Assembly (NCBI GenBank): GCA_021827925.1
Contig: JAKATZ010000024.1
Span: forward strand, 4,726-68,725
DNA: 64,000 bases
Direction: 5' to 3'
Origin: Candidatus Micrarchaeota archaeon
Lineage (GTDB): Archaea > Micrarchaeota > Micrarchaeia > Micrarchaeales > CABMGC01
A program made the translations under genes and the position numbers. Numbering within the stretch: the first letter of the stretch is position 1; each line of letters starts with the position of its first letter. Below the pieces are notes generated by a model. The model worked only from the letters and a program-made list of their open reading frames with translations, had not been told where the DNA came from and did not search any database. Shown here piece by piece: positions 23,765-56,940 of the stretch.

Positions 23765-24187
23765 CTACCTGTATCCGCTCAGGTCAGGTTCGGTTTTTGC
23801 GCCAGGAACCTTTGCAGGCTTTAGTCGGTACCAGTTCGCATACAGCCACATGTTATAGCGATGCTGCTCATGAATGAACGTGAGCGTGAGGTATCCGAAC
23901 TCGTCTTCGTGCCCCATCACTGCTATCGAATCTGCATCTGCAACTTTGCCGCCGCCGACGTATATCATCCTGACCCCCAGTTTGGCGGCGGCATCGAGAA
24001 ATTGCTTGTAATCCGTTCCGCCTGCAGGCGCCCACCAGTCGACATTCGTGTAGTTTCCTGCTGGCCAACCGAAGAAGACAGCAAACCTGCTTTTGCAGTA
24101 TTCCTTTATCTCGCCCAATACGGGCTTTAGATCGTCCGCCACGCCGAACTGTACCTTCCTCCATTCCGGACTGGTTTCCGCTTCCAT
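23765..24187 (-). CDS. Hypothetical protein (possible last gene of the large minus-strand operon)
   Basis: 140-aa ORF, Trp/Tyr-rich, with no motif I recognise. It starts 48 nt downstream of the preceding gene on the same strand. Confidence 0.5.
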   Translation of the reverse strand: MEAETSPEWRKVQFGVADDLKPVLGEIKEYCKSRFAVFFGWPAGNYTNVDWWAPAGGTDYKQFLDAAAKLGVRMIYVGGGKVADADSIAVMGHEDEFGYLTLTFIHEQHRYNMWLYANWYRLKPAKVPGAKTEPDLSGYR

Positions 24188-24235
24188 TAAATCACTTCAA
24201 TATCGGTTATAGCGCATAGCGCAATGATCATGCAT

Positions 24236-26602
24236 TCAGAAAAGCAGCTGATCCAGATTGTTTGTATCTATCATCTTTATCGTAGAGTACGAGACGCCCA
24301 TTTTGAGAAGCTCGGATTCCTCGCCATAAGAGAAATACAGCCTGTCGGTAAACTCTGCCCTCGACTCCTCGTCGAGGAATACAAGAAATGCACGCTGATC
24401 CTTGCTCATCTTTATCTTCTTCCTGCTAGTGGGCCCGGATTGTATGAATATCTGGCTCTGGGAACCGGACCTGGTGATGACCATGTCCGCATTATCGTTT
24501 GTATCGAGGTCGGTGAAGAGTATGGCATGCTCAACGCAATAGTCGCGGAGCTTGCGGAATATCACAAGGTAGGCAATGTCATGATTCGCTGCATCGACCC
24601 AGCGCTTCGGCGCGTAGTAGTTCGAGGCCGAGAGCAGCTTGCCCTGGGATACCAGCCTGTCCAGTATGTAAGCCGTGTTCTGCAGGGTTATTGCTATGGG
24701 CATATTGTTGTACCGTACGTTACCGCTTATGCCAGTCTTAACTTCCTCTGGGGTGAGCGGCATGTACCTCCAATGGAAGCGGTAATTGACAGTATCGAAT
24801 ATGTTGAGGATCGTGTTGGCGTCAGTCTTCGCCTCCGCCTTCTTACCCGATGAGAACTCCGGCACGTCTACGTAGTACTCGTCCCTTACCGGCGTCTTGA
24901 TTATGAGATTCAGCAGAAGGATAACGAACACTGCTATCCCGAACTCGAGGTAGAACGGAGGTATAGGGCTCTTTCCGGAGTACCTTGCGGAGTAGTAGTA
25001 GGTGTAATTCAACAAGCTTACAGCAAAGGACTGCTGACCGTAGCTTATGACTGTGCCCTTCGGCAGGAGATATGAGATGAGGCCTTCCGCCACGGTGCCG
25101 TTTTCACGGTAGATGTTGTTTATGCTTGCAGTATATGGAACCCCGGAGATGTATCTGCCATTGCTCTCCGCGCTGAATACGAACGTCCCGTTCTTGAAGT
25201 TTATGGTAACCGGAGTTATGACCACTCCGGCTTCGTAGAATAGTGCAGACCCGTAAAGGGTGTCGTTTGAATCACGCAAGGACGCCACGTAATAGCCGCT
25301 TGGAAGTGCGAATGAGGTGTACTTCACAGGCACGAGCGATGCGTTGAAGAATCCCACAGGCAGGCTCTCTTTCAGGTTGAGGCTTTGATCGTATATGTCC
25401 AGATAGAAGAGCCTTGAGCCTATGTTCGGATTTGAGAGCTTTATGTACACAGGTACCACGTCTGTTGCGCCTATGACCCGCGGCATTCCCACGCTGGCAC
25501 TGGCATTGTACCTGATGCTTATGGGCGCCTCTTCGTACGAGCTTCCGTTCACGTTGGATGCGGTGAATGTTAGAAGGGAGTATGAGGAATTTATGACAGC
25601 TGAAGCGGATGCGTACTGGACTGGGGAGTTTGATGCGAATACAGTTGTTATCCCGTGAGAGGTTCCATTGATGAAGACACTTCCGCTCTCCACCGGACGC
25701 ATCCATGCCCTGGACGCTATTATGCGCGATATGTCGCTGGCCTCTGCGCTGGCATTGACATACGCATCGGTAGGATAATTGCTTAATGCCAGGATGGTGC
25801 CATTGCCATAGTTCGCATAGGTTACAGGGCCGATACTTGAACCGTTCATGAAGCTGAAGGTAGGCGAATTGAAGTATATTGTGCCGAACTGAAGCCTGGT
25901 TGCTGTGGCATTCTGCGGATATGCAGAAGGGGCTGTTCCTAGACCTGCGGCGCCCAGAACGTCAAGCGTCCCCTGAGGGGTGAGATATATGACTCCGTTC
26001 GTTATGCTCTTTGAGAAATTCTGCCCCACGTAGATTATAGTATCGCCTTTTTCCATGAGGCTGAGAATGGTGGCATTGTCGCTCTGGTTTGGGCTTCCGG
26101 AAGGCAGCAAAGAAGTAGGCATTATGCCCGAAGGCACTACTATGAGGGAATTGTCGGGCACGGTGCCTATGTCGAATAGACTGACCATGCGCAGACTGCT
26201 CGCGTTGCGCAGCAGGCCGTACGCCTGCATGTCGGAAAGCATCGACGAGTATAACTGGAGCTCATCGAAGCATTTCTCGCACGTGCTTCCGAGATTCAGG
26301 AGGACGACGCTTTCGAAAGGGTTATTCTTGTACATGCTGAGGGTGACATTGAGCGTTGAGGAATTCGTGAGGTTGTATCTGAACGTAGCATATCCTACCG
26401 CATAACCGGAATTGTTGTAGGAGAATACACCTTTGGAGACTATGGAGTGGCTCATCGCTATTTGGCCTGACGGAGGCGCGGTCACATTAGAGGCAAGGCT
26501 CTGCAGTACCGAGATTTCATTGCGCAGGTATGCCGAGATTCCTGCCAGAAATAAGACCGCGAGAATCACGGAAACGAGTAGTATAACTTTCTTTGAAGGC
26601 AT
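24236..26602 (-). CDS. Large bitopic protein: N-terminal signal anchor, sequon-rich beta-rich ectodomain, one TM, ~210-aa cytoplasmic domain
   Basis: 788 aa. The N-terminus is KKVILLVSVILAVLFLAGISAY. More than a dozen N-x-S/T sequons are present. A second TM (FYLEFGIAVFVILLLNLII) precedes the C-terminal soluble domain. Confidence 0.65.
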   Translation of the reverse strand: MPSKKVILLVSVILAVLFLAGISAYLRNEISVLQSLASNVTAPPSGQIAMSHSIVSKGVFSYNNSGYAVGYATFRYNLTNSSTLNVTLSMYKNNPFESVVLLNLGSTCEKCFDELQLYSSMLSDMQAYGLLRNASSLRMVSLFDIGTVPDNSLIVVPSGIMPTSLLPSGSPNQSDNATILSLMEKGDTIIYVGQNFSKSITNGVIYLTPQGTLDVLGAAGLGTAPSAYPQNATATRLQFGTIYFNSPTFSFMNGSSIGPVTYANYGNGTILALSNYPTDAYVNASAEASDISRIIASRAWMRPVESGSVFINGTSHGITTVFASNSPVQYASASAVINSSYSLLTFTASNVNGSSYEEAPISIRYNASASVGMPRVIGATDVVPVYIKLSNPNIGSRLFYLDIYDQSLNLKESLPVGFFNASLVPVKYTSFALPSGYYVASLRDSNDTLYGSALFYEAGVVITPVTINFKNGTFVFSAESNGRYISGVPYTASINNIYRENGTVAEGLISYLLPKGTVISYGQQSFAVSLLNYTYYYSARYSGKSPIPPFYLEFGIAVFVILLLNLIIKTPVRDEYYVDVPEFSSGKKAEAKTDANTILNIFDTVNYRFHWRYMPLTPEEVKTGISGNVRYNNMPIAITLQNTAYILDRLVSQGKLLSASNYYAPKRWVDAANHDIAYLVIFRKLRDYCVEHAILFTDLDTNDNADMVITRSGSQSQIFIQSGPTSRKKIKMSKDQRAFLVFLDEESRAEFTDRLYFSYGEESELLKMGVSYSTIKMIDTNNLDQLLF

Positions 26603-26607
26603 CGTAC

Positions 26608-26751
26608 CTATCCCTTGTATTCCATCTTATTGCTCTTGAGGAGGTACTTGTCTACAAGGGACTGTATCTTCCTTGATACGATGTTTGCCTCCCCGCCGTA
26701 GTGCTTGAGTATGCGGTATATGCGGATATTCCTGTACTTTCGGTTTATCAT
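26608..26751 (-). CDS. Candidate small basic protein (47 aa), below the usual ORF cutoff
   Basis: MINRKYRNIRIYRILKHYGGEANIVSRKIQSLVDKYLLKSNKMEYKG. The ATG lies 24 nt after the upstream stop and the stop lies 5 nt before the downstream start, so it fills an otherwise empty 172-nt gap in a tightly packed operon. Confidence 0.35.
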   Translation of the reverse strand: MINRKYRNIRIYRILKHYGGEANIVSRKIQSLVDKYLLKSNKMEYKG

Positions 26752-26774
26752 CACGCGGTATTGCAACGAAGCAC

Positions 26775-27509
26775 CTAGCTCTGAAGGCTCAGGTACCCCA
26801 TGGATACCATCTTGTCGAGTATCTCCTCGACACGCGGCGCGGCTACGCCATGGTTCTTGGCGAACTCGTTGATGTCGATGGTATTGTTGTGCACCTCTAT
26901 CCAATCTTGGACCATACCCATCAGCGAACCGTCCGAATAAGTTTGCAGCGTCTTAAGGCGCTCGCTCAGCTTCTTATTGTCATCATTCAGCTGTGCCGAC
27001 TGTATAGTAAGGTTTCGGTTCGAAGAGGCGAGCTCCAGGTTGAGTCTCTTGAGCTCGCGGTACTCGCCCAGCATGACATCGTACTTATTGAATAGGGTAC
27101 TGTACGGCTGCGAGAGGCCATTTATTATGTGGTCGAGGACCGAATCTATGTATTGCATGAACGTGCCCTCGCTTATATCGTACTGGTCGGATATCATCGA
27201 GATCAGGGAAGCCATGTTTTTCAGTATCACCGCTCTGCGCATGTTCTCGCTTGTATCGTGCGGTATGGAGTATATAACGCTGAGCTCATTGCCGGTTATC
27301 GAGATTATATGGAAAAGATACGGTTTCTTGTGTATGTTCCTGCTCTCTACGCGTACTATCACGAGCTCGCTGCCTTCGATTTTTGAGGAGTAGAATGGCA
27401 CTCTCTTGATTTTGTCCCGTATCCCGTCCAGGCTTCCGATAAGCTTCCCGCTGAAGGAGATCTTCTCCGTCTTGGGCTCGGGCGCCGTCTCTTCTGCCAC
27501 AAGTATCAC
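26775..27509 (-). CDS. Coiled-coil protein with a C-terminal winged-helix-like domain
   Basis: 244 aa. A central heptad region (ELKRLNLELASSNRNLTIQSAQLNDDNKKLSERLKTLQ) is followed by a C-terminal INEFAKNHGVAAPRVEEILDKMVSMGYL wHTH-like segment. Confidence 0.6.
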   Translation of the reverse strand: MILVAEETAPEPKTEKISFSGKLIGSLDGIRDKIKRVPFYSSKIEGSELVIVRVESRNIHKKPYLFHIISITGNELSVIYSIPHDTSENMRRAVILKNMASLISMISDQYDISEGTFMQYIDSVLDHIINGLSQPYSTLFNKYDVMLGEYRELKRLNLELASSNRNLTIQSAQLNDDNKKLSERLKTLQTYSDGSLMGMVQDWIEVHNNTIDINEFAKNHGVAAPRVEEILDKMVSMGYLSLQS

Positions 27510-27533
27510 ATATTACTAAGAGTCTAAATCTAT

Positions 27534-27944
27534 TTATTGCTTGCGCTTCTCTCCGAGAGAGACTGGTTCGGCTTTCCTTCGTGATATCGAACCTCTGCTG
27601 ACCGAAAGTGCAGGGAGCCAGTTTATGAGAGAGAGAAGATAGAGGAGTATGATTATCATTACGCTGAAGAGCAGTGAGCCTATGCTAGGGGAGAGGAGCA
27701 TGCTCACCACCAGCACAGCGACGCCAAGGATAAGGTATAGCCTCTGCCGAGATATGTATCTCTTGCGGTACTTGTTGTATTTGGGATAGCACTCTTTACA
27801 GACGACAACGCGGTTGTTCAGTCTCTTTCCGCGAACGTAGCCGTTTATTGTGCGTATCGCACGGGAAACGTTATCCTCGCGTATCTCTATGCCGTCCTTC
27901 TCCTTGCCGCATATTATGCAGTAGCTCTTCCTCCCCTGTGTCAT
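27534..27944 (-). CDS. Zinc-ribbon membrane protein
   Basis: 136 aa with an N-terminal CIICGK...CKEC ribbon, 2 TM helices and a basic tail. It has a 4-nt overlap with the upstream gene. Confidence 0.6.
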   Translation of the reverse strand: MTQGRKSYCIICGKEKDGIEIREDNVSRAIRTINGYVRGKRLNNRVVVCKECYPKYNKYRKRYISRQRLYLILGVAVLVVSMLLSPSIGSLLFSVMIIILLYLLSLINWLPALSVSRGSISRRKAEPVSLGEKRKQ

Positions 27945-28246
27945 TCGACCACCAGGGTAACGACCCTGCCGAAAGTGCTCTTTATCTTCTCCTCGTCGAG
28001 GGTATTGAATATGTCAGTTATGGTTACGTCGTCTATGCCTATGCGCCGGAGCAGGTTTGAGACTTCTGGCTGCCTAAGGCCAAGCTTCTGCAGCATACCG
28101 ACAAAGGCGACTACGTTCACGTGTCTGTGCATCTTGTTCAGGGAGGATAGCATTCCTTCTATGCTGCTTTCACTGATGCCCATGGAAGTGAGCATCCTCT
28201 TCATATCTATACGGCTTATTATGAAAGTTCCGGGCAAGGCAACCAC
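27941..28246 (-). CDS. Small helical protein built from repeated 'L..(M/I/L)G(I/L/V)....(I/V)...(L/F)' hairpin modules
   Basis: 101 aa with three copies (MLTSMGISESSIEGML, MLQKLGLRQPEVSNLL, LLRRIGIDDVTITDIF). The same module ends the upstream ATPase (FLRSMGVSDSIITRIF). It starts 1 nt after the ATPase stop. Confidence 0.55.
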   Translation of the reverse strand: MVALPGTFIISRIDMKRMLTSMGISESSIEGMLSSLNKMHRHVNVVAFVGMLQKLGLRQPEVSNLLRRIGIDDVTITDIFNTLDEEKIKSTFGRVVTLVVE

Positions 28247-28247
28247 C

Positions 28248-29753
28248 TTACGAAGTGTATGTGAAGATTCGTGTTATTATGCTGTCAGAGACGCCCATGC
28301 TTCTCAGGAAGCTTATTATTATCTCCCTGCCTACGTTCCTTCCGGATATCGTCTGCACTAGCCATCTCACGTCGACCATCCTGTTCTTATCGTCCATGTC
28401 CTTGAATATGTCCTGGATCACCTGTGAACTCAGACCGCTCTCCACGAACTTCGAGGTAAGATCCATCTTCTCGAAGGAGTATTCCTTCTGTGTCTCGCGG
28501 GCAGCCAATTCGTCCGGATTCAGAACCTCGGCGATGGTTATCGTGTAGCTGTTCAGCGGCACCTCCCCTATTATGCGGTCTATTATGAACGTGTTGGGGA
28601 ACTGCACGGAGGTGTTGAACGACATGTCAACCGCGGCCTGACCGACACCGAAGCGCGTTATCTCACGGCGTATAAACCCTGAAAAGTTTAGCGAACCCTG
28701 CAGATAGTTCATGAACTTCTCGAATCGTATCCTTAACATCACAGTGGTGCCTACGTTTGAGAATATCGCCTCGTTGATGTCGGTTGGATTCTGTGAGGCA
28801 ACTATGAGTCCGAACTGATACTTTCTGCCTTCCCTTATGATCGTTATGGCATCGCTGCGTTCATCACTGGCGACCTTCCATGCCTCGTCAAGGACGACAA
28901 GCGCCTTGAGCCCGCGTGCGGCACTCCATCCTTCGGCACGCATCTTCTCCTTCAGCGTCTGCAGTATGAAAAGCGCTGCAAGGGCCCTGAATCTCTCGTC
29001 AGGTAGACTTGATAGATCGAGATCCACAAGGCCGGAGCTGGATAGCTTGCCCAGATCTATGGTGCTCTCCCTTGCAAAGTAATCTTCGCCTTCCCGGGAG
29101 AACTGCCGCAGCCGGTATATCGCATTCTCAAGTTCCGCAGGATACTCGTAGCTTCCTTCCTGCAATTTTTCATCGAGAAGACTTGCGACGTCTTTAAGCG
29201 TAGGCGCCTTACCGTCAGGTGAAGCCGGAGCGGCAAGGTTGAAGCCGGCATTGATGTACGCCTGCTCTATCGCCTCTGCAGTGAGCCTCCTCTGCTCTGG
29301 AAAACCGGATATATCGGTGAGTATGTCGAGCGAGTTCATTATCTGTTTTACCCTGTCTATGGGCTTCATGCCCGATAGATCCATTATGTTTAGGTAGTCT
29401 CCCTTCGCCAGGGATATGACAGTGCCGCCGCTCTGCTTCACCCATGCAACATATTCCCCCGCCCAGTCGATTATTATCGCATTGGTATTCCAGATATAGC
29501 TTGCGCGCGTTATGAATGTCTTGACGAAAAAGCTTTTTCCTGCCCCGGTTATCCCCACAACGGCTATGTGCGGATTTGTGAGGTTGGAGTACGTCCACGT
29601 GAAAGGCACGCTGAACAACTTTGTTATGCCCAGGAATATGGAGTTTGTGGGGTCGTTCAGAAGGAACTCCTGCGGCGGCTCCGGAGGGCGACTTAGGAAG
29701 ATCCTCTTTGAAAGCTCGTTGCTCATAACATTCTGTATCCTTACAAGCGTCAT
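28248..29753 (-). CDS. FtsK-HerA superfamily ATPase (DUF87 / HerA-VirB4-like)
   Basis: 501 aa. Walker A is GITGAGKS, encoded at 29532..29555 and checked against the nucleotides. Walker B is ALVVLDEAWK. REGRKYQFGLIVASQNPTDI is typical of HerA/VirB4-type P-loop ATPases. Confidence 0.85.
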   Translation of the reverse strand: MTLVRIQNVMSNELSKRIFLSRPPEPPQEFLLNDPTNSIFLGITKLFSVPFTWTYSNLTNPHIAVVGITGAGKSFFVKTFITRASYIWNTNAIIIDWAGEYVAWVKQSGGTVISLAKGDYLNIMDLSGMKPIDRVKQIMNSLDILTDISGFPEQRRLTAEAIEQAYINAGFNLAAPASPDGKAPTLKDVASLLDEKLQEGSYEYPAELENAIYRLRQFSREGEDYFARESTIDLGKLSSSGLVDLDLSSLPDERFRALAALFILQTLKEKMRAEGWSAARGLKALVVLDEAWKVASDERSDAITIIREGRKYQFGLIVASQNPTDINEAIFSNVGTTVMLRIRFEKFMNYLQGSLNFSGFIRREITRFGVGQAAVDMSFNTSVQFPNTFIIDRIIGEVPLNSYTITIAEVLNPDELAARETQKEYSFEKMDLTSKFVESGLSSQVIQDIFKDMDDKNRMVDVRWLVQTISGRNVGREIIISFLRSMGVSDSIITRIFTYTS

Positions 29754-29785
29754 GATATCTTACCCCTGGCTAAACATATAAGCAT

Positions 29786-30613
29786 TCACTTTTGCACCTG
29801 GAAGAACTTGTTTATCTCTGCGAAATCGTACGTGCGGTAGTTGAACTTGTGCAGGTAGTACAGCTCCCTGCCGACTACGCGGCTTATGCTGAGATCGAAC
29901 GCGTTGAAGAGCGTCTGCAGCTGGCTTAGCTGGTTCGCCAGTGCATCCGTGGCCTCCTTTTCGCTTATCCCGACGGCCGTGCTCTCTATGTACATTAGAG
30001 AAGTTATTGGCCTTTCGCCTCCGGATATGCGGTCTATGCGTGTCTGCATCACATTTATCTTCCTCTGAAGCTCCTGGACGGTCATCTGGCTTGGATTCGT
30101 GCCGCTCAGCTCCTTTGATAGCTGGAATGATAGAAGGCCTCTCTGGGCCTCGAGCTCTTCGCGGTAGCCCTGTAGATCCTTTGCGGCGGATATGGCATTG
30201 AACTTGAAAGGGAAGTTTATGTTCATGACCATGCGTTCCCACTTGTCAGGTGCTGATGCCATCGCCTCTTCCTCCCCAGCAACCACATTCTCAGCTGTGA
30301 ATATGTATCCATAGATATTTGCAGTCAGATAACCTGTTGCGTAATGCAACCCTTTGGTGTATTTTAGTATGCAGTTTTGCGAGCTTGGTATCAGGTAATC
30401 CTTCGCTGGTATCGTGTTTATCTTGAGGATTTTCGTGAAAGCGGGGAATATTATGAAATCCGCATAGTTTATTATGAGGATAGCAAGTATGGCGAGGATG
30501 GCAAGTGCGAGCATCAGAATTCCGAAGGCGCCGTAGCTAGCGTAGTTAAGCGCCACGACAAGCACGGCAGCTAATGACGCCCCGAGATAGAGTATGGTTG
30601 ATTCGTCCATCAT
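29786..30613 (-). CDS. Bitopic (2-TM hairpin) protein with a ~200-aa soluble coiled-coil-containing domain
   Basis: 275 aa with two N-terminal TM helices followed by a soluble domain. It has a 4-nt overlap with the upstream gene. Confidence 0.65.
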   Translation of the reverse strand: MMDESTILYLGASLAAVLVVALNYASYGAFGILMLALAILAILAILIINYADFIIFPAFTKILKINTIPAKDYLIPSSQNCILKYTKGLHYATGYLTANIYGYIFTAENVVAGEEEAMASAPDKWERMVMNINFPFKFNAISAAKDLQGYREELEAQRGLLSFQLSKELSGTNPSQMTVQELQRKINVMQTRIDRISGGERPITSLMYIESTAVGISEKEATDALANQLSQLQTLFNAFDLSISRVVGRELYYLHKFNYRTYDFAEINKFFQVQK

Positions 30614-31503
30614 ATCCCCTCTTCGATTGTCTTCTGCCGCAGGCGTTCGCTCACCGTTTCCACAGGTATCATGTAATCTGGCTCTGTGAAGTTTAGCATC
30701 TCGGATCCAGTGGCTATTGATGCGTTTACCCCAAGAGTGGCACTGATGCCTGCGGCGAGCTCTTCTGCCTGCTGAACCGCTATGTTTACCGCCTCCTCGT
30801 CGCTCCCGCCCATCGCAGTTAGCATTGCGTACGTAAACAGTGATTGCGAGTGCACTTCACTGACATTGTTCAGTAGGTTGCGCCACATCGTAACCTCTCC
30901 CCTTATGCGCTCTGAAACGCTCTTCGGCACCCCTTTTTTCGCCTCGCTCTCAGCGTATCTCTCTCCGGCCTCATTGAGCTTGTTCCTTATGCTGTTGATA
31001 TAATCGTCCTTGTTTATCACATAGAGCTGGGAGGAGATCTTGACGGGGGATTTTGTTAGGGCGAGTATCCTGCTGAAGAGTCTGGCAAAATCCGCTTTCT
31101 CCGCTGCGCTCATCTCGGTGGAGGATCTGTACACGGGAATCTTTATGAAAACTGAAGCGTAGGAGTTAGAACCTTCCTTCACTATCAGGGCATTGCCAGA
31201 AGGCGCCATGTAGAAAGGATCATCGGCGCTGAGAACCATGGCTCTGCCTTTCATGCGCAGCGCAGGCAGTACAAGATATGAATAGTACTTGGTTGAGAAT
31301 GCCACAACTGCTAGAAGAAGCGAGAGTATCCCGAATGCCACGTTTGCAAGTGGATAAGGTGTAGTGGATGCGACAAACGCGAACAGCAGGGCCGCGCCTA
31401 TAAATATCACGAATATCAATAGCTGCGAATTGGTTGGCAGTGTAGCACCTTCCTGTATGATCTCTGAATGGTAGGAGCATCCTTTTATACTTTTATACAG
31501 CAA
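30610..31503 (-). CDS. Bitopic (2-TM hairpin) protein with a ~200-aa soluble domain, same architecture as 29786..30613
   Basis: 297 aa with two N-terminal TM helices followed by a soluble domain. It overlaps the upstream gene by 11 nt. Confidence 0.65.
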   Translation of the reverse strand: MLYKSIKGCSYHSEIIQEGATLPTNSQLLIFVIFIGAALLFAFVASTTPYPLANVAFGILSLLLAVVAFSTKYYSYLVLPALRMKGRAMVLSADDPFYMAPSGNALIVKEGSNSYASVFIKIPVYRSSTEMSAAEKADFARLFSRILALTKSPVKISSQLYVINKDDYINSIRNKLNEAGERYAESEAKKGVPKSVSERIRGEVTMWRNLLNNVSEVHSQSLFTYAMLTAMGGSDEEAVNIAVQQAEELAAGISATLGVNASIATGSEMLNFTEPDYMIPVETVSERLRQKTIEEGI

Positions 31504-33762: not shown

Positions 33763-35028
33763 TCAGATCAACTTGTTCATGAGCTTGCCGCTTTGCAGTG
33801 AAGGCGCGCCGAGTAGATCGCCGACCATCTCAAGCATGTCGTATGCCACTACAAACGCTATTCCGAAGCCGAGTACCTCTAGCGCGGAATCCGCAGCTCC
33901 TTGTGCAAATATCTGCAGTGTTATTATAAACGCATTACCCATAGCGACATTTGCCCCGCCTGGAGCTAGAAGCGAGAGCATCGCGGCGCCTAACTGATAT
34001 ATCCTACCGAGGGTTATTGAACCTGCGTCACCAGTGCAGAAAGCGATCTTTTGGGTTGAACTATTGCATACCGTGTTTTGTGATATCGTACTAGGAGTAG
34101 GCGCCAATGCAAGGAATGGGAACAATATTGAGGGGAATATTATGAAGAAAGATATGAAAAGAGCTATGAGTGATCCTCCCGCAGGCCTTGTCCATGGCAA
34201 TGACCTGAGCACAAGGCCGACGTAAAGAAAGAGGGGGAAGAGGAAGTAGAAGATGTAAAGCAGAAAGATCACGCCAATCCCCAGAAATAGGAAGAGGAAG
34301 ATTATTGCGGTCTGCAGGAACGTCACAGAGACCATAGGGCCTATGCCTTCAAAAGGCTGCACTGTGCCCTGTGGGATATAGTTTGATAGCGGACCCCCAA
34401 CGGAGAACGAGAAGTATGAGTTTTGAACTATCTCGAATGGTATCAGGAGTGCGAAGGTGCCGATTATGCTGAATAAGGATGGCGTGACCTGACTGTTCAT
34501 TATATTAGTACAGAGCGAAGAGTAGAGAGCAGTGACTCCGGAGCCTTCCGTTATGTGCGTTGTTGTAACCCCCAAGGCATCCGTGATATTTGAGAAAAAA
34601 TTGAGTGTGCTGTAGGCAAACGAGAGGCTTGCTGTGATCACAACCACTATTATTATGTTCAGTATCTGCTCCATGTATTCTGCCCTAACGAATGCCACGA
34701 GCTTGTGTATCCCGAAAGCCGCGCCTATCGCATACACCACAGATAGCACGATGAGAACCATTGTTACTATCAGCATTGAGAGGTCTATCAGATGCGAGTA
34801 TATCAAGGTGGAGCCAGCGGGGTTGAAGCTGTTTGTGACGATGTTGGGATTCGTATTTGCGAAGAGGGTATCGCAATATCCAGCAGATGCAGCGTTTACA
34901 AGGAAGAAAGATAGCATTGAGAATAGGGATATTGCAAGGAAGGCGCGCCTGCGTACCGTACTGTGAACTGCTTCGCGCTCACGGGCCGGCTTTCCGAAGT
35001 CCATATTAACAGTTCTTCTTTCTTTCAT
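33763..35028 (-). CDS. Polytopic membrane protein, paralog D
   Basis: 421 aa. The family motif is GLVLRSLPWTRPAGGSLIALFISFFIIFP. The upstream motif is VAFVRAEYMEQILNIIIV. Confidence 0.7.
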   Translation of the reverse strand: MKERRTVNMDFGKPAREREAVHSTVRRRAFLAISLFSMLSFFLVNAASAGYCDTLFANTNPNIVTNSFNPAGSTLIYSHLIDLSMLIVTMVLIVLSVVYAIGAAFGIHKLVAFVRAEYMEQILNIIIVVVITASLSFAYSTLNFFSNITDALGVTTTHITEGSGVTALYSSLCTNIMNSQVTPSLFSIIGTFALLIPFEIVQNSYFSFSVGGPLSNYIPQGTVQPFEGIGPMVSVTFLQTAIIFLFLFLGIGVIFLLYIFYFLFPLFLYVGLVLRSLPWTRPAGGSLIALFISFFIIFPSILFPFLALAPTPSTISQNTVCNSSTQKIAFCTGDAGSITLGRIYQLGAAMLSLLAPGGANVAMGNAFIITLQIFAQGAADSALEVLGFGIAFVVAYDMLEMVGDLLGAPSLQSGKLMNKLI

Positions 35029-36599
35029 ATAAGCCTACCTAGTCCTAGAAGGAAGGTGTCTCCTCCGAAAAGCGAGGATAGACCTTTCAGGCTTGCAAGC
35101 GTCAGCAGGATGTTGAGGATCGGGAGCACAATTCCGATCACAGATATTATCCCGTACATCTGCTCAAGACCGAATAACGTGTTTATGACCTCTTTCGGAT
35201 CGCAACCGAGATTATACGTGAGAAACTTGGGTGCACTCTGATATACATTTCCAATCAGTGCCGTAAGTGCAAGGTACTGACTGTATCCAGGTACAAGGTA
35301 TGAACCAGCATCCAGAAGTTCCTGCTGCAGAAGGTTGCTCCCTCCGCTAGAGCCGAATGGTATCGGCCAGCAGCCGTAGTAGTTTATTATGGATTCAGCG
35401 TTTGGAAATACGTAGAAGTTTATGTTCTTGGCGTAGTCCACACACGGTGTTCCTTTGTCAGTAAACCGAGGGCAGCTGCTGTCCCCAGGAGGCGTGCCGT
35501 TCAGATATAGGACAGGTATGACAGAAGGAGATGATGGCGATGGAGGAGAGCCGAGTATGGATGTGGTTGGCGCACCGGTTATTGGCATCCTGCTGCATGA
35601 GCCCGTAGTAGGACAGGTCAGCGAAACGTACTCGAACAGGTAGATGGTAGGGTAGATTATCACTGAGGCAAGGGCTATCGCTATCAGAAGGCCTCCGAGC
35701 CGGCGCGTTAGAAATGAGGCGCGCAGTATCACGCCTGCTGCTAACAGATACGGCCATGCGAAGAGCGCGAAGAGTATGGCCAGAAGCTGTATTTGGAACA
35801 TGTAGAACATCATTGTTGCCTGGGTGAGCACCGAAAACATTACCCCTCTGAACACAGTGTAAGCAGAATACGGCAGATAGGCTATCATCACCTGCCAGGT
35901 GTCAGGTATCTGGCTAGTCCCAGACGCCTGCAGATTCTGCACACCATTCTGTAGACAGAAGAGCTCAGGGAGGCAAGCGCCGCTTATTGGCTGCAGGGCG
36001 GAAAGATAGTTTGTATATCCCTCGAAGATGTAGACTGCGTTTATGTTCTCGGATATCTGCTCGGTAAGATTCGCGGTTATTAGATAGGTTGATGCAAGTC
36101 CGTAATCGAGATTGGCGGTCGCATCTGTCTTGCCGGCCTTGCTTATCAGACTCGAACATATGGTGTTTGTAGGAGTAACGGTAGACGGTGAGACGAGGGT
36201 TGGCGGCTCTATGTTGCCTACCAGCAGTATGTTGGCATTGTCGAGCTGACCACATATTTTGTTCACATTGCCTTGTGGTAAAGAAGAAAGTACGGCATAG
36301 AAAGTACTGCCATAGAAGTTCAGAACCATGAGTATTATTATGACCATTGCAACAGTACCTAGTGCCTGGCTGTATTCACTTATCGCATTTGCCTTTATGC
36401 GGCGGTTGTTCAGCAGATATCCTATTATGTAGTATATCAGCGTTATGCCTACTCCCAGAAGCGAAGCAAGAAGCACAAGTGGGAGCCAGCTGTTTAGCAC
36501 AGATACACTCGTTTCTACGGTTGGAGCTGCCGCGTGAAGTGAAGCGAAAAATACTGCAGATGTTACTGCCGCAAGATAGAGGCATAGTGAGCGTCGCAT
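35025..36599 (-). CDS. Polytopic membrane protein, paralog C (largest, with long extracytoplasmic inserts)
   Basis: 524 aa with signal peptide ...FFASLHAAAP. The family motif is GVILRASFLTRRLGGLLIAIALASVIIYP. The upstream motif is RIKANAISEYSQALGTVAMV. Confidence 0.7.
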   Translation of the reverse strand: MRRSLCLYLAAVTSAVFFASLHAAAPTVETSVSVLNSWLPLVLLASLLGVGITLIYYIIGYLLNNRRIKANAISEYSQALGTVAMVIIILMVLNFYGSTFYAVLSSLPQGNVNKICGQLDNANILLVGNIEPPTLVSPSTVTPTNTICSSLISKAGKTDATANLDYGLASTYLITANLTEQISENINAVYIFEGYTNYLSALQPISGACLPELFCLQNGVQNLQASGTSQIPDTWQVMIAYLPYSAYTVFRGVMFSVLTQATMMFYMFQIQLLAILFALFAWPYLLAAGVILRASFLTRRLGGLLIAIALASVIIYPTIYLFEYVSLTCPTTGSCSRMPITGAPTTSILGSPPSPSSPSVIPVLYLNGTPPGDSSCPRFTDKGTPCVDYAKNINFYVFPNAESIINYYGCWPIPFGSSGGSNLLQQELLDAGSYLVPGYSQYLALTALIGNVYQSAPKFLTYNLGCDPKEVINTLFGLEQMYGIISVIGIVLPILNILLTLASLKGLSSLFGGDTFLLGLGRLI

Positions 36600-37766
36600 T
36601 CATGCACCCCAGAAAGGACCTACGCCAATTATCGAAGACAATGAGTTGAGTCCCTTCGTGAACCCTATCGCAAATCCCACAGTCATCGCAAGATCTAACG
36701 CTATTAATACAATTCCCTCGAAGAAGTACGCGCCGACATCAGGCACGAATGAATTTATGATGTCAGGAAGATCAAAGAAACCTTTTATCAGGTTGATGTA
36801 GAATCCTGTTGTGCCGCTTTGCGCATATGAAAAGTAGTAGTTGAAGGGTACGCTGAGAGTTCCGTACCCGAATATGTTGGGAGCCTGGTTTGACGAGAAG
36901 AGGCTACTGACAGGTATGTTTGAAATCGGATATTTGCCAAGGTAAGCCGAGTAAGGATTGCATACTGTCCCTTTGTTTGTGCAGTAGAGCCAGCCAGTTA
37001 TGTAATAATTCATGGATATGGTCATGGGAAAAATGAAATATAAGGCTATGGCAAGGGCTATCACAGAATTTGCAGCCTCGCGGAGCCTGGGTCCCGAAAA
37101 GCTTATCGATCTTAGTATGACCGCAGTGGGTATCAGGGTTATTAGGGCAAATTGTTCTATTAGGGGCATGATGAAATACAGCGAGAAGAGTATACCGAAG
37201 GTAAGCATGATTATGCCAGTGAAAACTCCTGAAAACGTTGTAGCATAATCGTAGGCTATATAGACCAGCTCGCTGCCAGGCGACACGCCGAGGGAAAAGA
37301 AGGGCGTTGGTATCGAGAAGGAGGTGACTATGTTTGCAATTGCGCTGTCTAGATTTCCATCTATTATGAATGATATTCCCTCGGACCACACATTGGTTGC
37401 AAGTCCTATGCCCTTCGAGTATAGAAGATTATGCAGGTAGAGATGGGCAAACTGGTAAGGATCGAACTGCGCAGAGTTGCCAGTAAGCAGCGCTGCGGTA
37501 CTGCACATGGGAAGTGCGAAGGTTATCAATGAGACCACGAGAAGCATGCTTATCACACCCTGCACGAGCTCGTACCTGACAACTCCCCTCAGCCTTTCCC
37601 TTGTGGCTATTGGAAGGACACTCCCTACTGCATATATGAATGAAGAGATGGCCATCGTTGCTAACACTATAAGGGCTGTTGCTTCGATCCACTGTGGCCG
37701 GTATATTGCGCCGAACGTGCAGGTGGACTGGAAGAGTGAGGTTACGGCGAAGAAAAAATCCATCAT
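36600..37766 (-). CDS. Polytopic membrane protein, paralog B (most divergent motif)
   Basis: 388 aa. The motif is AVILRSISFSGPRLREAANSVIALAIALYFIFP, where GG is replaced and 2 residues are inserted. The upstream motif is RLRGVVRYELVQGVISMLLV. Confidence 0.65.
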   Translation of the reverse strand: MMDFFFAVTSLFQSTCTFGAIYRPQWIEATALIVLATMAISSFIYAVGSVLPIATRERLRGVVRYELVQGVISMLLVVSLITFALPMCSTAALLTGNSAQFDPYQFAHLYLHNLLYSKGIGLATNVWSEGISFIIDGNLDSAIANIVTSFSIPTPFFSLGVSPGSELVYIAYDYATTFSGVFTGIIMLTFGILFSLYFIMPLIEQFALITLIPTAVILRSISFSGPRLREAANSVIALAIALYFIFPMTISMNYYITGWLYCTNKGTVCNPYSAYLGKYPISNIPVSSLFSSNQAPNIFGYGTLSVPFNYYFSYAQSGTTGFYINLIKGFFDLPDIINSFVPDVGAYFFEGIVLIALDLAMTVGFAIGFTKGLNSLSSIIGVGPFWGA

Positions 37767-39173
37767 TCACACCAGCTTCAGCTTGCCGCCTATCTGCAGG
37801 CGTATCGTGCCGCCGAGCATCCTCGCGATGTTGTCTGTCATAGGGAATGCGATTATCGCGTCCAGAATGAACAGGAAGTAAGTCTGCAGCATTATGTAGA
37901 TGTTGTTTTGTATGACGAAGTTCATTGCAGGATAGGGATTGTAGATTGACTCGAATGCAATATTGTTTGTAACACCAACTATCAGAAGAGGATTTGAGGG
38001 AATCCCGGAAGGAGAGCATCCGTGCGAGGTTAGGAAGTTGAATACCTTGTTAAGGATTGTGGGAGAGTAGGTACTGCACGAATAAGCCGGAAGGTCTGTC
38101 GGCATCATGTTCGCCGCGCCAAGTACGTTTGAAAAATAATTGGATACAGGGGTGTTGAGAATGATTAGCAAGGAAGGCCAGATGATACTAATGCCTATCC
38201 CAAAAGCTATAAGTGTGCCGCCTATGCCCCTTATGAATGGGAATGCGCGCATAATCAAGCCCATAGGTATGAGAACAAGCAGGCCGATGCGTATCAGAAG
38301 AGGCAGGAGTACTATCTGGCCTATGAATACGGCCATCGCTGGCGTTTCGAGAAAAACCAATGCATCATTAAACACGGATACAAGCTGTACGTGATATATG
38401 AAATCGGATTGAAGGAAGAAATTCCCGAATATGATGAAGGATACCATTGACCTGAAGACTGGTATGAAATCAAGGGCCGCTGGAAGCGGAACAGGAGGTA
38501 CAGGAATCCCAGGAAAGACAAATGAAAGACCGGAATACACCCCGTTTCCAGCAAGTCCGTTGTTTTTCGTGCCGCTGAAAAGGGAACCTATGCTTGTAAG
38601 CTGGCTTGTGAAACCGCCGCCTCCGCCCAGCCCTCCTTTGAATAACCCGAATGAGAGGAAAAGGGAGATCATGTGCTTTATTCCGTACTCTATCTCACCC
38701 TCGGTGTTGCAAAGATATACCTCTGAGCCGTAAGTAAGCAGATCTGCATTGGCTATATAGGTAGGGGTTCCTGCGCGCAGGGAAGCGCGACCTGAAGCGG
38801 GTATGTTATTGCCAGCAGTTATCACGGCTATGTTGCCTATCAACGTGACTACTGAGAATATAGCTGCTACGAGCATCACAGACTTTGCGAACTCCCAGTA
38901 CTCATTGCCCAACCAACCGGAGATGCCCGCCGAGGGAAATAGCTTGCTCAGTATGTACCCTATGACTATCACATCGAAGGATATGAAAAGTGCGATTATG
39001 GATATGCCTATTGAAATCGCAGGGATCTTGAAGCCCAAGCCTATGTTGTTTGCTATGTTCCCGGGCTGACACTGACTGAGGCTTGATAGCGTAACAGAAG
39101 GAGCTGCGTTTAGTGTGCAGAGCATCATGAGAGAAGCTAGCAGCAGGAGGATGCCATGCCTTAAAGAGGGCAT
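37767..39173 (-). CDS. Polytopic membrane protein, paralog A
   Basis: 468 aa with signal peptide ...MLCTLNAAPS. The family motif is GLIMRAFPFIRGIGGTLIAFGIGISIIWP. The upstream motif is GNEYWEFAKSVMLVAAI. Confidence 0.7.
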   Translation of the reverse strand: MPSLRHGILLLLASLMMLCTLNAAPSVTLSSLSQCQPGNIANNIGLGFKIPAISIGISIIALFISFDVIVIGYILSKLFPSAGISGWLGNEYWEFAKSVMLVAAIFSVVTLIGNIAVITAGNNIPASGRASLRAGTPTYIANADLLTYGSEVYLCNTEGEIEYGIKHMISLFLSFGLFKGGLGGGGGFTSQLTSIGSLFSGTKNNGLAGNGVYSGLSFVFPGIPVPPVPLPAALDFIPVFRSMVSFIIFGNFFLQSDFIYHVQLVSVFNDALVFLETPAMAVFIGQIVLLPLLIRIGLLVLIPMGLIMRAFPFIRGIGGTLIAFGIGISIIWPSLLIILNTPVSNYFSNVLGAANMMPTDLPAYSCSTYSPTILNKVFNFLTSHGCSPSGIPSNPLLIVGVTNNIAFESIYNPYPAMNFVIQNNIYIMLQTYFLFILDAIIAFPMTDNIARMLGGTIRLQIGGKLKLV

Positions 39174-39232
39174 GTATTCTTCTTGACATCAACAGCTATA
39201 AATAAGGCGCGCATTACACACTGCATGCTCTG

Positions 39233-40687
39233 CTAGGTAAGGGGTGTGCTGTGGGTGCGCATACGGTAGTGGAAGAGACGCATTCTGGTGATCCCGCCTC
39301 CTGCATTCATTTCGGCTACGGGCTCGCCTCCTTCTAGCCATATCCTTCCGGTAGGTTTCAGTATAACCTGTCCTTTGCGTGGCCCTTCTGTTTCGCGCAG
39401 TATCTTGCCTTCGGCATTCATCATTGGCGCTATGACGAATGCTCTGCGTGGATTGAAGGAAACGCCGATCCGCATCTGAGTCCCTGGAAAAAGGCCGTGC
39501 CGGAGTTCAGCATGCTCGAATTCACCAGTAGTGACTACCCTACCCAGGGAACGGCCGTAAAACTGCGTTGTACGCGAGAGCCTGATGTGCCTTAGCTCGG
39601 TAAGCCGGCGTTGCAGCTGGTCGATGTGATCACTGTGCATCGCAGCGATGCTGTCTTCGCCTGAGGAGATGGCATTATTCCATGCCATTCTTGCGGCGCT
39701 CATCTGCCTCTGAAGAAGCGCTTGCTGCCTGTTGAAATCCCTAACCTCAAGAGTGCGCTCCCATTTATCCGCTATATCGCCCCACATCCTTGCATGGTAA
39801 TTAAGCGCACGTTTTTCCGCACCTTCGAATGAGGATCTCGCCGTCTCAATGCCTCCTATTATTCTCCGCATTCTCGCAGCGTATCTTCTTCTCTGGCGCT
39901 CGGTTCGTGCATTCATGAAGCCTTGATAAGCCCTATCCCGCCTATCATATAACCTTCCAAGGTATTGCATTCTGCGTTGCTTATATACAGCAAAATGGTA
40001 TCTGAGGTCCGCCTCGGCTCGCTTGCTTTGCGAGCCCTCGAATAACGTGCTTGTCGTACTCCTGAACGCTTGACTTGTTTCCCTTCTTCTCCCCCACTCT
40101 GCCTTCGCCGCGGAGATCCTCTGGCCTTTGCGCGCACGAATGCTGCTCCTTATCGGATTGTATATCACAGCCCAGCCGGAGGCGTTTTGCCTTCTCATAC
40201 CAGGCCAATTTAGCGGATTGAATCTCGAGAACCTAGTACTTGCGCCTCCTGCAGGGCCCTGTGGAATTCCATGCGGAGAGCTTGGCGCGCCGCTTGGAAG
40301 GGCAGAGGCCGGCGCCGCGCCTGCGGCTGCAGCCGCAAGTGCAACTTCAGAGGTAGGTATTGTGCTAGGACCTGAGGGTGGGCTACCTGCACCTGTGCCT
40401 CCGCTGCCGGACTTTCTGCCGAACGTCCAGCCGCTTTTGGCTCCCACAGTCCTCCTCAGGTTGGGATCGAGTATCGTCCTGAAAGGAAATGCAGACTTGC
40501 CGGAAAGGTTGCCCTTTGAGCTGGGAGTTATGCCTGCCAGCGTCGCTATTCCGAATATCGCGAATATGTTGAAGCCGCGCGTTGCGCCTGCAGCGGCGAG
40601 TATGAGTATCGCTATTATGAACAGAGGTATGAATGCGTTAATCGAGCCTATCGAGAGCAATATGTACAGCAACGTTGCCAGCAGCAT
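39233..40687 (-). CDS. First operon gene: N-terminal TM hairpin, Gly/Pro/Ala/Ser-rich linker, Arg-rich helical domain, C-terminal beta-like domain
   Basis: 484 aa. The N-terminus is LLATLLYILLSIGSINAFIPLFIIAILILAAAGA. The low-complexity stretch is SGSGGTGAGSPPSGPSTIP...AAAAAGAAPASALPSGAPSSP. A long R/Q/A-rich helical region follows. Confidence 0.65.
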   Translation of the reverse strand: MLLATLLYILLSIGSINAFIPLFIIAILILAAAGATRGFNIFAIFGIATLAGITPSSKGNLSGKSAFPFRTILDPNLRRTVGAKSGWTFGRKSGSGGTGAGSPPSGPSTIPTSEVALAAAAAGAAPASALPSGAPSSPHGIPQGPAGGASTRFSRFNPLNWPGMRRQNASGWAVIYNPIRSSIRARKGQRISAAKAEWGRRRETSQAFRSTTSTLFEGSQSKRAEADLRYHFAVYKQRRMQYLGRLYDRRDRAYQGFMNARTERQRRRYAARMRRIIGGIETARSSFEGAEKRALNYHARMWGDIADKWERTLEVRDFNRQQALLQRQMSAARMAWNNAISSGEDSIAAMHSDHIDQLQRRLTELRHIRLSRTTQFYGRSLGRVVTTGEFEHAELRHGLFPGTQMRIGVSFNPRRAFVIAPMMNAEGKILRETEGPRKGQVILKPTGRIWLEGGEPVAEMNAGGGITRMRLFHYRMRTHSTPLT

Positions 40688-40719
40688 CGCGTTTCCCTAT
40701 TGGGAATAGCCGTTTATGA

Positions 40720-40729
40720 TTTATATAGT
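40720..40729 (-). promoter_or_regulatory. Candidate TATA box for the large minus-strand operon
   Basis: The minus strand reads ctatataaat, centred about 37 nt upstream of the ATG at 40687. That is consistent with an archaeal TATA at about -26 and a short leader. Confidence 0.3.
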
Positions 40730-56118: not shown

Positions 56119-56158
56119 TTTTGAAGATGGAAAGACGTGGTATAAAAATATAAAAGCT

Positions 56159-56932: not shown

Positions 56933-56940
56933 ATGATGCG

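Follow-up and report, generated by a model that had tools for sequence, protein, structure and literature searches.

Gene content and layout of the operon

This work concerns a 64,000-nucleotide stretch (the window) of contig JAKATZ010000024.1 (positions 4,726 to 68,725 of the forward strand; assembly GCA_021827925.1), part of a metagenome-assembled genome from Micrarchaeota (DPANN), and within it a minus-strand run of 16 tightly packed consecutive genes that extends from 40687 down to 23765. The run was defined from the listing of open reading frames (ORFs) and their translations, and consists of g1 to g13, a 47-codon ORF, g15 and g16. A preliminary description, made from the sequence alone, had read it as one operon of 15 to 16 genes, built around a HerA/VirB4-class ATPase and at least eleven membrane proteins, for a candidate undescribed envelope machine.

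The genes are closely coupled. Four junctions are 4-nucleotide overlaps (g4/g5, g6/g7, g8/g9 and g11/g12), stop and start codons abut at three others (g2/g3, g3/g4 and g5/g6), and the remaining intergenic gaps are 59 nucleotides or less once the 47-codon ORF (26608-26751) fills the sole large gap. Upstream, the sequence reads as a TATA-like box, TATATAAA, at 40720-40727 on the minus strand, 32 nucleotides 5' of the g1 ATG, which is a candidate promoter for the operon. At the other end the block is closed by the convergent top6B gene (22096-23757, plus strand), for the B subunit of topoisomerase VI. The GC content of the operon (0.47-0.51) is the same as that of its flanks, which hold housekeeping genes, and there is no compositional break. 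The gene run, its junctions, the upstream box, the convergent neighbor and the uniform composition were all reproduced as they had been claimed, and the descriptive labels hold as well: g2-g7 are paralogues, g10 is an ATPase, g12 a zinc-ribbon protein, g13 a coiled-coil/winged-helix protein and g15 a sequon-rich bitopic protein. The membership of 15 to 16 genes stands for g2 to g13, g15 and the 47-codon ORF, which are conserved elsewhere; g16 has no homologues, and the position of g1 varies. Profile searches over all products (Pfam, NCBIfam and PHROG), which had been proposed as a check, matched the ATPase alone, and a rerun at E values up to 10 added nothing.

A VirB4/CedB-type motor split into three polypeptides

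The central gene, g10 (28248-29753, minus strand), encodes a 501-residue P-loop ATPase with Walker A (GITGAGKS) and Walker B (VVLDEAWK) motifs, followed by a C-terminal EF-hand-like helical module of ~90 residues (28248-28511). Its Pfam matches are DUF87 (1e-14), AAA_10 and the TraG P-loop, with TrwB_AAD_bind as a sub-threshold match on g10 itself. Among the NCBIfam models, the VirB4-like CD1110 (5e-18), CedD (1.5e-17), CedB (3e-16) and TraC (3.5e-16) come slightly ahead of the HerA models, all of these matches covering the C-terminal ATPase domain only and falling far below the curated cut-offs. The CedB equivalog (NF041017) gives 59 bits against a 700-bit cut-off, over the C-terminal third only; the HerA equivalogs give 48-50 bits against cut-offs of 800-970; and FtsK_SpoIIIE, aligned to just 27 residues at the P-loop, gives 18.5 bits where the Pfam cut-off is 24. 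Searched against the PDB, g10 matches HerA (5e-12) and VirB4 (4AG5, 1e-6).

The identity of the motor is provided by the two genes upstream of it. The products of g8 (30610-31503, minus strand) and g9 (29786-30613, minus strand) each combine two transmembrane helices with an alpha/beta soluble domain of ~200 residues, and are mutual paralogues (hhalign 99.9%). The start of g8 is uncertain, as gene callers choose an ATG at 31410 that yields 266 residues. Profile searches of the PDB with g8 and g9 returned nothing useful. The AlphaFold2 model of g9 is confident, with a predicted local distance difference test score (pLDDT) of 85.6. In Foldseek, a comparison likewise proposed beforehand, the five best PDB matches to this model all come from the R388 type IV secretion inner-membrane complex (chains of 685-808 residues), at weak scores (E 0.035-0.21, probability 0.38-0.75, TM-score 0.25-0.30). 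We take these chains to be TrwK/VirB4.

Profile comparisons point the same way. The g8/g9 profile matches the first ~250 residues of six fused ATPases of 870-913 residues (hmmsearch E 5e-11 to 7.5e-6), and it aligns with the N-termini of the fused ATPases over 167 columns (hhalign 98.2%, E 3.5e-14). The g8 hidden Markov model (HMM) alone also matches the N-termini of fused CedB-like ATPases. A search of 1.84 billion proteins places the 870-913-residue ATPases among the top-scoring relatives of g10 beyond its own family, and they match the NCBIfam CedB model over nearly its full length (E 1e-26 to 7e-42). The ambiguity in the class of the g10 core is thus resolved, because g8 and g9 are the missing VirB4 N-terminal domain; HerA, to our knowledge, does not have the CedB/VirB4 N-terminal domain. 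The VirB4/CedB-type motor is divided among three polypeptides: g10 supplies the ATPase domain, and g8 and g9 are two copies of the N-terminal domain, each with its own two-helix membrane anchor, that tether it. As judged from these profiles, g10 is related to CedB at the superfamily level, by way of the fused intermediates. A precedent for dividing these functions is seen in the Sulfolobales, where the VirB4 N-terminal functions are shared out between the paralogous proteins CedB and CedD (PMC11868833).

The four fused-ATPase relatives that we looked up (L059, L146, L147 and L148) all lie in Ced-like modules. The order in these modules is a small protein (where the contig reaches that far), a CedA-like protein of 287-291 residues, a ~60-residue protein and an ATPase of 861-913 residues, to which three of the four modules add a ~430-residue protein after the ATPase. 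The ~430-residue proteins have no similarity to g12, g13 or g15, and the EF-hand-like module is absent from these outgroup ATPases. CedA1-domain (PF27251) matches are on record for two of the modules (L059 and L147). The European Nucleotide Archive sample accessions of L147 and L148 are numerically near that of the window (ERZ272...).

Six polytopic membrane proteins

Upstream of the motor lie six genes on the minus strand whose products are mutual paralogues (hhalign 95-99%): g2 (37767-39173), g3 (36600-37766), g4 (35025-36599), g5 (33763-35028), g6 (32590-33762) and g7 (31493-32593). The g5 and g6 assignments rest on hhalign; g2, a candidate VirB6/CedA-like protein, aligns with g3-g7 at 98-99% and carries an R-x2-GG...P motif. 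The largest extracytoplasmic insert, with 11 cysteines, is that of g4, and g7 is the best conserved of the six (40-54% identity). A common topology runs through the family. Most members begin with a signal or anchor helix. Next come a helical hairpin and an extracytoplasmic insert that varies, and then a second hairpin with an invariant motif in its cytoplasmic loop and a last helix. In g7 the invariant loop motif is P-G-x3-R-x3-P-x-R-x2-G-G ... P and the C-terminal motif is P-x18-GG; the residues in question are P231, P236, G237, R241, P245, R247, G250 and P265 in the loop, and P333-x18-G352 in the last helix. The AlphaFold2 model of g7 is all-helical (pLDDT 86, predicted template-modeling score 0.75).

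None of the six has a Pfam or NCBIfam match, and a PDB sequence profile search with g7 returned nothing useful. In the four CedA-like proteins of the outgroup modules both motifs recur at identical spacing, as R164-x2-G167 with P182 placed 18 residues after R164, and as P244-x18-G263. When g2-g7 are pooled with their distant single-copy relatives, the resulting profile aligns with the CedA-like proteins over 131 columns that span both motifs (hhalign 49%, E 1.7e-4). Taken individually, the g2-g7 families score 0.2-23% in hhalign, and all of these alignments map to the same region. The pooled-core HMM scores 24.7 bits on one CedA-like protein. Conversely, among 15,357 ORFs searched with the CedA-like HMM, the best matches past its own sequences and CedA1 are g7 orthologues; these matches are weak and collinear, from the first hairpin to the last helix.

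The N-termini of CedA and VirB6 resemble their cognate pilins (PMC9905601), and a similar feature is found in g3, whose N-terminal hairpin (residues 32-78) is like the VirB2/TrbC pilins. A family of stand-alone pilin-like proteins from related loci (described below) aligns with the N-terminal hairpin of the g3 family (hhalign 86%, E 5e-6), a jackhmmer search seeded with the stand-alone pilins recovers g3 orthologues, and g3 is the best ORF of the window for the pilin HMM. In comparisons with this family g1 and g12 gave no signal, and both were rejected as pilins. These results argue for a probable, if unproven, homology of g2-g7 to a CedA/VirB6-like polytopic protein. They are probably six ancient and positionally fixed paralogues, each with a pilin-like N-terminal hairpin that is clearest in g3, and each with a different extracytoplasmic insert.

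Conservation of the gene order

The neighborhood of the ATPase was compared across 58 loci from species-representative genomes and 80 metagenome loci. Homologues of the ATPase number more than 1,000; the best 120 are 72-100% identical (72-82% excluding the window's own sequence), and those among them that are named are mostly Micrarchaeota. The 13-gene order g2-g3-g4-g5-g6-g7-g8-g9-g10-g11-g12-g13-g15, counted without the 47-codon ORF, is fully collinear in 29 independent loci. The part from g10 to g15 is collinear in 51 loci and that from g2 to g10 in 36, and the non-collinear remainder consists mostly of truncated contigs or more distant variants. The 47-codon ORF is kept in place in 29 other loci at 33-55% identity, and top6B is convergent 3' of the operon in ~40 loci. 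Gene order is conserved far beyond chance, and the block is a conserved operon-like unit that is chromosomal and vertically inherited.

Each of the g2-g7 paralogues has its own positional orthologue across loci, and the six-fold duplication therefore predates the divergence of these species. Across Micrarchaeota the ATPase is 62-82% identical, compared with 51-71% for the neighboring top6B, and the membrane parts are far less conserved than the ATPase (23-57%). Two loci (L005 and L006) have the g13-g15 pair inverted and moved 5' of g8, with g2-g7 not adjacent; the block can therefore be rearranged. In some relatives (P0362, P0363; L115:799-4323) the ATPase gene is interrupted by inteins with LAGLIDADG homing endonucleases, at two different sites, one just after Walker A and the other in the Walker B region. 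Very conserved, important proteins are the usual targets of inteins.

Pilins in related modules and a simpler layout

Sorting the loci by the identity of their ATPase to g10 gives three tiers. Tier A (62-82%) has the full window-type operon. Tier B (55-58%) has one g8/g9-like gene, an ATPase with a fused C-terminal g11 module, g12, g13 and g15, sometimes with three tandem small genes upstream. Tier C (36-46%) has a small protein, one polytopic protein, a g8/g9-like protein, an ATPase (with the g11 module) and a g13-like protein. The tier C polytopic protein is a single copy of 290-350 residues with its best scores to g5 or g7, and the small protein was observed in roughly six loci. Tier C loci are set among archaeal housekeeping genes and are archaeal by their gene context.

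The homologous modules contain or adjoin genes for small two-helix proteins; in L089 and L149 such a gene lies immediately upstream of the module. Of ten such proteins, eight have T4SS_pilin or TrbC/VirB2 as their best Pfam match (E 1.5e-6 to 4e-3), and one of the ten exceeds the TrbC gathering score (28.7 bits, E 1.5e-6). Related modules thus carry VirB2-like pilins. Read from these sequences, the more distant relatives appear to reveal the ancestral layout: a VirB2-like pilin, a polytopic protein, an N-terminal-domain protein, the ATPase and a coiled-coil/winged-helix protein.

Two loci with the full operon also have a stand-alone VirB2-like pilin upstream of g2 (L041:27-212 and L054:129-296), with an adjacent polytopic protein of 243 residues (L041:279-1010 and L054:382-1113). 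The position that the pilin takes 5' of g2 in these loci is held in the window by the unrelated g1, and neither the pilin nor the 243-residue protein of L041 and L054 has a homologue in the window.

Accessory proteins

The remaining genes, all on the minus strand, have no counterparts (g16 aside) in type IV secretion or Ced as described. The product of the first gene, g1 (39233-40687), has 484 residues: a hydrophobic hairpin at the N-terminus, then a linker rich in Gly, Ser, Pro and Ala, and an Arg-rich C-terminus (72 K+R). It has no family match and is conserved only over residues ~1-70, the N-terminal membrane part; in seven loci (L021, L022, L027-L029, L043 and L106) its homologue lies between g7 and g8. 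Downstream of the ATPase, g11 (27941-28246) is an EF-hand-like helical protein of ~100 residues; in distant relatives a homologous module forms part of the ATPase itself, at its C-terminus. The profile of this module matches calmodulin in the PDB (E 1e-6), with no obvious canonical Ca-binding loop. The basic zinc-ribbon protein g12 (27534-27944; CxxC...CxxC) has a C-terminal membrane hairpin and is conserved beside the ATPase in Micrarchaeota-type loci.

The cytoplasmic protein g13 (26775-27509) comprises an N-terminal domain, a ZapB-like coiled coil and a winged helix, and occurs together with the ATPase at all distances, in almost every related system examined. Its winged helix (residues ~196-240) matches the CdvA-binding winged-helix domain of Sulfolobus ESCRT-III/CdvB (2XVC, E 3e-5). 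Public assemblies annotate the 47-codon ORF as a gene; its product is small and very basic (12 K+R). The bitopic surface protein g15 (24236-26602; 788 residues) is conserved in Micrarchaeota-type loci. It has two hydrophobic stretches, an N-terminal anchor or signal and a transmembrane segment at residues 545-574, which bound an ectodomain of ~520 residues with 22 N-glycosylation sequons and precede a conserved cytoplasmic domain of ~215 residues. The ectodomain gives only a faint Ig/filamin-like match (E 0.3), and the PDB profile search with g15 was otherwise of no use. The last gene, g16 (23765-24187), encodes a soluble protein of 140 residues and is a doubtful member; it has no family match, and it probably lies outside the system because no homologue was found in any other locus fetched.

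Comparison with known systems

The closest parallel is the Ced system of the Sulfolobales (CedA, CedA1, CedA2, CedB and CedD/CedE), which is chromosomal and imports DNA (PMC9905601, PMC11868833). Its import of chromosomal DNA is inducible by DNA damage. Both systems are chromosomal and relaxase-less. Both have a VirB4-like ATPase with a membrane-anchored N-terminal domain and a polytopic partner whose N-terminus resembles a pilin, and in both the pilin or polytopic gene lies upstream of the ATPase. The functions of VirB4 are divided in both, CedB and CedD each covering part of the VirB4 N-terminal domain, and the CedB model is matched over nearly its full length by the outgroup ATPases nearest to g10. 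Unlike Ced, the window encodes the ATPase and the N-terminal domain in separate genes and has the latter in duplicate, the polytopic paralogues number six where Ced has one or two, and no stand-alone CedA1-type pilin or PF27251 match on record is found. The window system has extra conserved parts (g11, g12, g13, the 47-residue protein, g15 and g1), and it belongs to DPANN, whereas Ced belongs to the Thermoproteota. The Ted system of the Thermoproteales (TedA, TedB and TedC), to which the window system is likened by description only, is also an independently diverged, domesticated derivative of type IV secretion, with a VirB2-like pilin bearing a signal peptide, a VirB6-like protein and a VirB4-like ATPase (PMC9905601). 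Relatives of the window system have such signal-peptide-bearing VirB2-like pilins; the HerA, ParA and Rad50 genes with which Ted loci associate are absent here.

Other relatives share less. The best NCBIfam match of g10 is the monoderm VirB4-like CD1110, and the single-membrane architecture is also that of the conjugative type IV secretion systems of monoderms (mating-pair formation class FATA, MPF-FATA). Patescibacteria have chromosomal type IV secretion clusters, mostly without a relaxase, which are reported to be essential for epibiotic growth in Saccharimonadia (PMC12102498); the window system resembles them in being phylum-wide, chromosomal and without a relaxase in an ultra-small, host-dependent lineage. 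Some members have VirB2-like pilins nearby, as in these two groups. In contrast to both, the window system is archaeal, has a split VirB4 and a different accessory set, shows similarity limited to the ATPase core, and has no Pfam match to VirB6/TrbL, VirB8, VirD4 or a hydrolase. With HerA-NurA and HerA-based defense complexes it shares the P-loop core and DUF87 (PDB HerA E 5e-12 to 1e-22), but g10 has no N-terminus of HAS-barrel length, no NurA or other nuclease partner accompanies it, and it is tethered by g8/g9 and embedded among at least eleven membrane proteins.

The partners expected of other machines were looked for as well. The genes called over ~60 kb of the window include no relaxase or VirD4-type coupling protein; no integrase, replication gene or NurA was found in its 64 kb, and no Mre11 or Rad50. 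The operon has no Pfam matches to PilB/ArlI (T2SSE), PilC/ArlJ or class III signal-peptide pilins. A 510-residue protein with a weak T2SSE (PilB/ArlI-type) match is encoded 21 kb from the operon (61439-62971, plus strand); it probably belongs to an archaeal type IV pilus system, unlinked to the operon.

Interpretation

We consider the operon to be a chromosomally fixed ("domesticated") and extensively rebuilt descendant of type IV secretion, of the Ced/Ted kind with lineage-specific additions, and give this reading a probability of roughly 0.62. One conserved operon encoding a membrane-embedded apparatus, with a VirB4-like ATPase of the FtsK/HerA superfamily at its center, is borne out as first described, as is the absence of relaxase, integrase, NurA and type IV pilus parts; the synteny around the ATPase, a survey of which had been proposed, is conserved. 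The claim that the membrane parts cannot be mapped to known systems is not supported, as g8 and g9 are the CedB/VirB4 N-terminal domain, g2-g7 resemble CedA-like proteins and g3 has a VirB2-like hairpin. Novelty survives in part: the cluster is not described in full-text searches that combined DPANN or Micrarchaeota with VirB4, T4SS, HerA and Ced, in the genome papers of cultured Micrarchaeota or in an archaeal "dark matter" survey, and the secretion section of the Mia14 genome paper lists type IV pili, Sec and Tat only; the core, however, belongs to the type IV secretion/Ced kind. Placement of most components in a characterized system had been named as the outcome that would speak against novelty, and the core does fall there, while five or six components do not. 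The machine has simpler relatives in other archaea and is not a categorically new one.

In the proposed mechanism, a g10 hexamer would dock on the membrane via g8/g9 and energize a channel or short stalk assembled from g2-g7. The glycosylated surface protein g15, with its conserved cytoplasmic tail, may mediate contact or gating at the cell surface, and g13, g12, the 47-residue basic protein, the Arg-rich g1 and the EF-hand-like g11 may recruit or regulate the substrate. We infer from the analogy to Ced/Ted, and from the many basic or nucleic-acid-type cytoplasmic modules, that the most likely substrate would be DNA, taken from or exchanged with neighboring cells; host-derived cargo was also considered.

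Several observations weigh against this assignment. The ATPase domain by itself is not separable from HerA: the NCBIfam scores of g10 are confined to this domain and fall far below the curated cut-offs, and in a PDB profile search of the ATPase the HerA-type proteins (1e-22) come ahead of VirB4 (4AG5, 6e-17). The Foldseek scores of g9 are weak, and the g7 model, in the second of the structural comparisons that had been proposed, matches nothing in the PDB, R388 VirB6 included. The link between g2-g7 and CedA is below the usual level of confidence for profile alignments. The CedA-like profile consists of four sequences only, because a scan of viral contigs for further CedA-like sequences added none. 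No protein of the window has a Pfam match to TrbL/VirB6 (PF04610) or CedA1 (PF27251); the latter was judged from the precomputed Pfam matches on record for the window's own genes, and the same resource flags PF27251 in the outgroup modules. The pilin HMM, run over the window ORFs, finds no stand-alone pilin in the 64 kb. Five or six components (g1, g12, g13, the 47-codon ORF, g15 and the separate g11) have no counterpart in type IV secretion or Ced. Finally, both the cargo and the direction of transport are conjectural.

Some of these points would suit the view, first put forward in the preliminary description, of a categorically new envelope machine, with a generic HerA/FtsK motor and membrane parts independent of VirB6/CedA and VirB2. 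HerA-type proteins are indeed the top PDB matches of the ATPase, no non-ATPase component has a Pfam, NCBIfam or PHROG match, g7 has neither a sequence nor a fold match in the PDB, and the similarity of g2-g7 to CedA is sub-threshold. We regard this view as improbable, as g8/g9 are specifically the CedB/VirB4 N-terminal domain (hhalign 98%), VirB2/TrbC-type pilins occur in the homologous modules of relatives, the motif spacing is common to g2-g7 and the CedA-like proteins, and the gene order mirrors that of Ced (pilin, polytopic protein, ATPase). The HerA matches could also be read as a sign of a membrane-tethered HerA-type DNA repair helicase or of an FtsK-like pump for chromosome segregation or cell division, with which the ZapB-like coiled coil and CdvB-like winged helix of g13, the very high conservation and the housekeeping neighbors would agree. 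This is very unlikely: NurA, Mre11 and Rad50 partners are missing from the window, the HerA scores are a small fraction of their cut-offs and FtsK_SpoIIIE is below the Pfam threshold, and at least eleven dedicated membrane proteins and the pilin genes of relatives do not fit such a role. Type IV secretion systems are usually borne on plasmids or integrative and conjugative elements, and among the nearest fused-ATPase relatives L146 adjoins a phage-type integrase; a still-mobile integrated conjugative element or a plasmid-derived transfer module is nonetheless the least plausible explanation of all. Evidence against a mobile element comes from the same chromosomal position beside top6B in ~40 species, the uniform composition, the orthology of all paralogues, one to one and by position, and the lack of integrase, relaxase, coupling protein and replication genes in the window.

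The alternative that deserves more attention, although we doubt it, keeps the type IV secretion ancestry and changes the task. The machine would not import DNA; it would form or energize a contact structure or conduit to a Thermoplasmatales host, for the delivery of effectors, the uptake of host macromolecules or lipids, or adhesion by a pilus-like stalk of g2-g7. The lineage is host-dependent (PMC5498576, PMC8975820), a core role is suggested by a degree of conservation like that of housekeeping genes, and the g2-g7 ectodomains are large, variable and Cys-containing, with g15 as a heavily glycosylated surface protein by its predicted sequons. The Patescibacteria provide a bacterial precedent, and giant surface proteins of nanohaloarchaea carry a VirB4-like domain (PMC10266531). 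Against this, neither the operon nor its immediate surroundings hold effector-like or toxin genes, the characterized archaeal relatives Ced and Ted move DNA, several cytoplasmic parts look suited to binding nucleic acids, and the nanotubes imaged between a Micrarchaeota-related archaeon and its host are described as embedded in the host envelope (PMC11329633). The latter paper was also considered as a source of a nanotube gene cluster and was dropped, as its text mentions no ATPase, VirB4 or HerA.

In a more specific and equally tentative form, the operon might build the conduit between ARMAN (archaeal Richmond Mine acidophilic nanoorganisms)/Micrarchaeota and Thermoplasmatales, with a pseudo-hexameric ring or stalk of g2-g7 on a split-VirB4 hexamer and with g15 as the host contact, importing host DNA or macromolecules. 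If so, it would correspond, in archaea, to the essential type IV secretion of Patescibacteria, and other archaeal lineages (possibly DPANN) would have simpler versions of it. The nature of the ARMAN-host connections, and the way in which DPANN obtain what they cannot make, are open questions; we know of no molecular machine that has been assigned to either in Micrarchaeota.

On the reading that we prefer, of a domesticated relative of Ced and Ted, the operon is a defined chromosomal candidate of ~15 genes for moving DNA or large molecules across the envelope, conserved across the Micrarchaeota sampled. Kinship with Ced/Ted and with conjugation gives testable hypotheses (DNA uptake or exchange, localization at contact sites, interaction of g8/g9 with g10, heteromeric assembly of g2-g7) that could be addressed in existing co-cultures, if those carry the operon. 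A VirB4 divided among three genes, and a VirB6/pilin-like component expanded six-fold, would extend the known plasticity of type IV secretion, and a parallel would be drawn with the chromosomal, mostly relaxase-less systems of the ultra-small Patescibacteria.

Other genes of the window

The preliminary description had raised the possibility of an acidophilic host-symbiont consortium. The acidophilic, symbiotic setting is retained, with the refinement that the organism itself, a member of the Micrarchaeota, is the putative symbiont. A peptidase A4 gene, coding for an acid-active glutamic peptidase, lies at 42044-43021 (plus strand), and a second A4-like gene of 164 residues is called in a sister assembly of the region, at about window 6350-6850; we take these genes as fitting an acidophilic habitat. 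Farther along, at 55405-57654 (plus strand), are three tandem KaiC/RadA-like ATPase paralogues of 237-246 residues each (Pfam PF06745).

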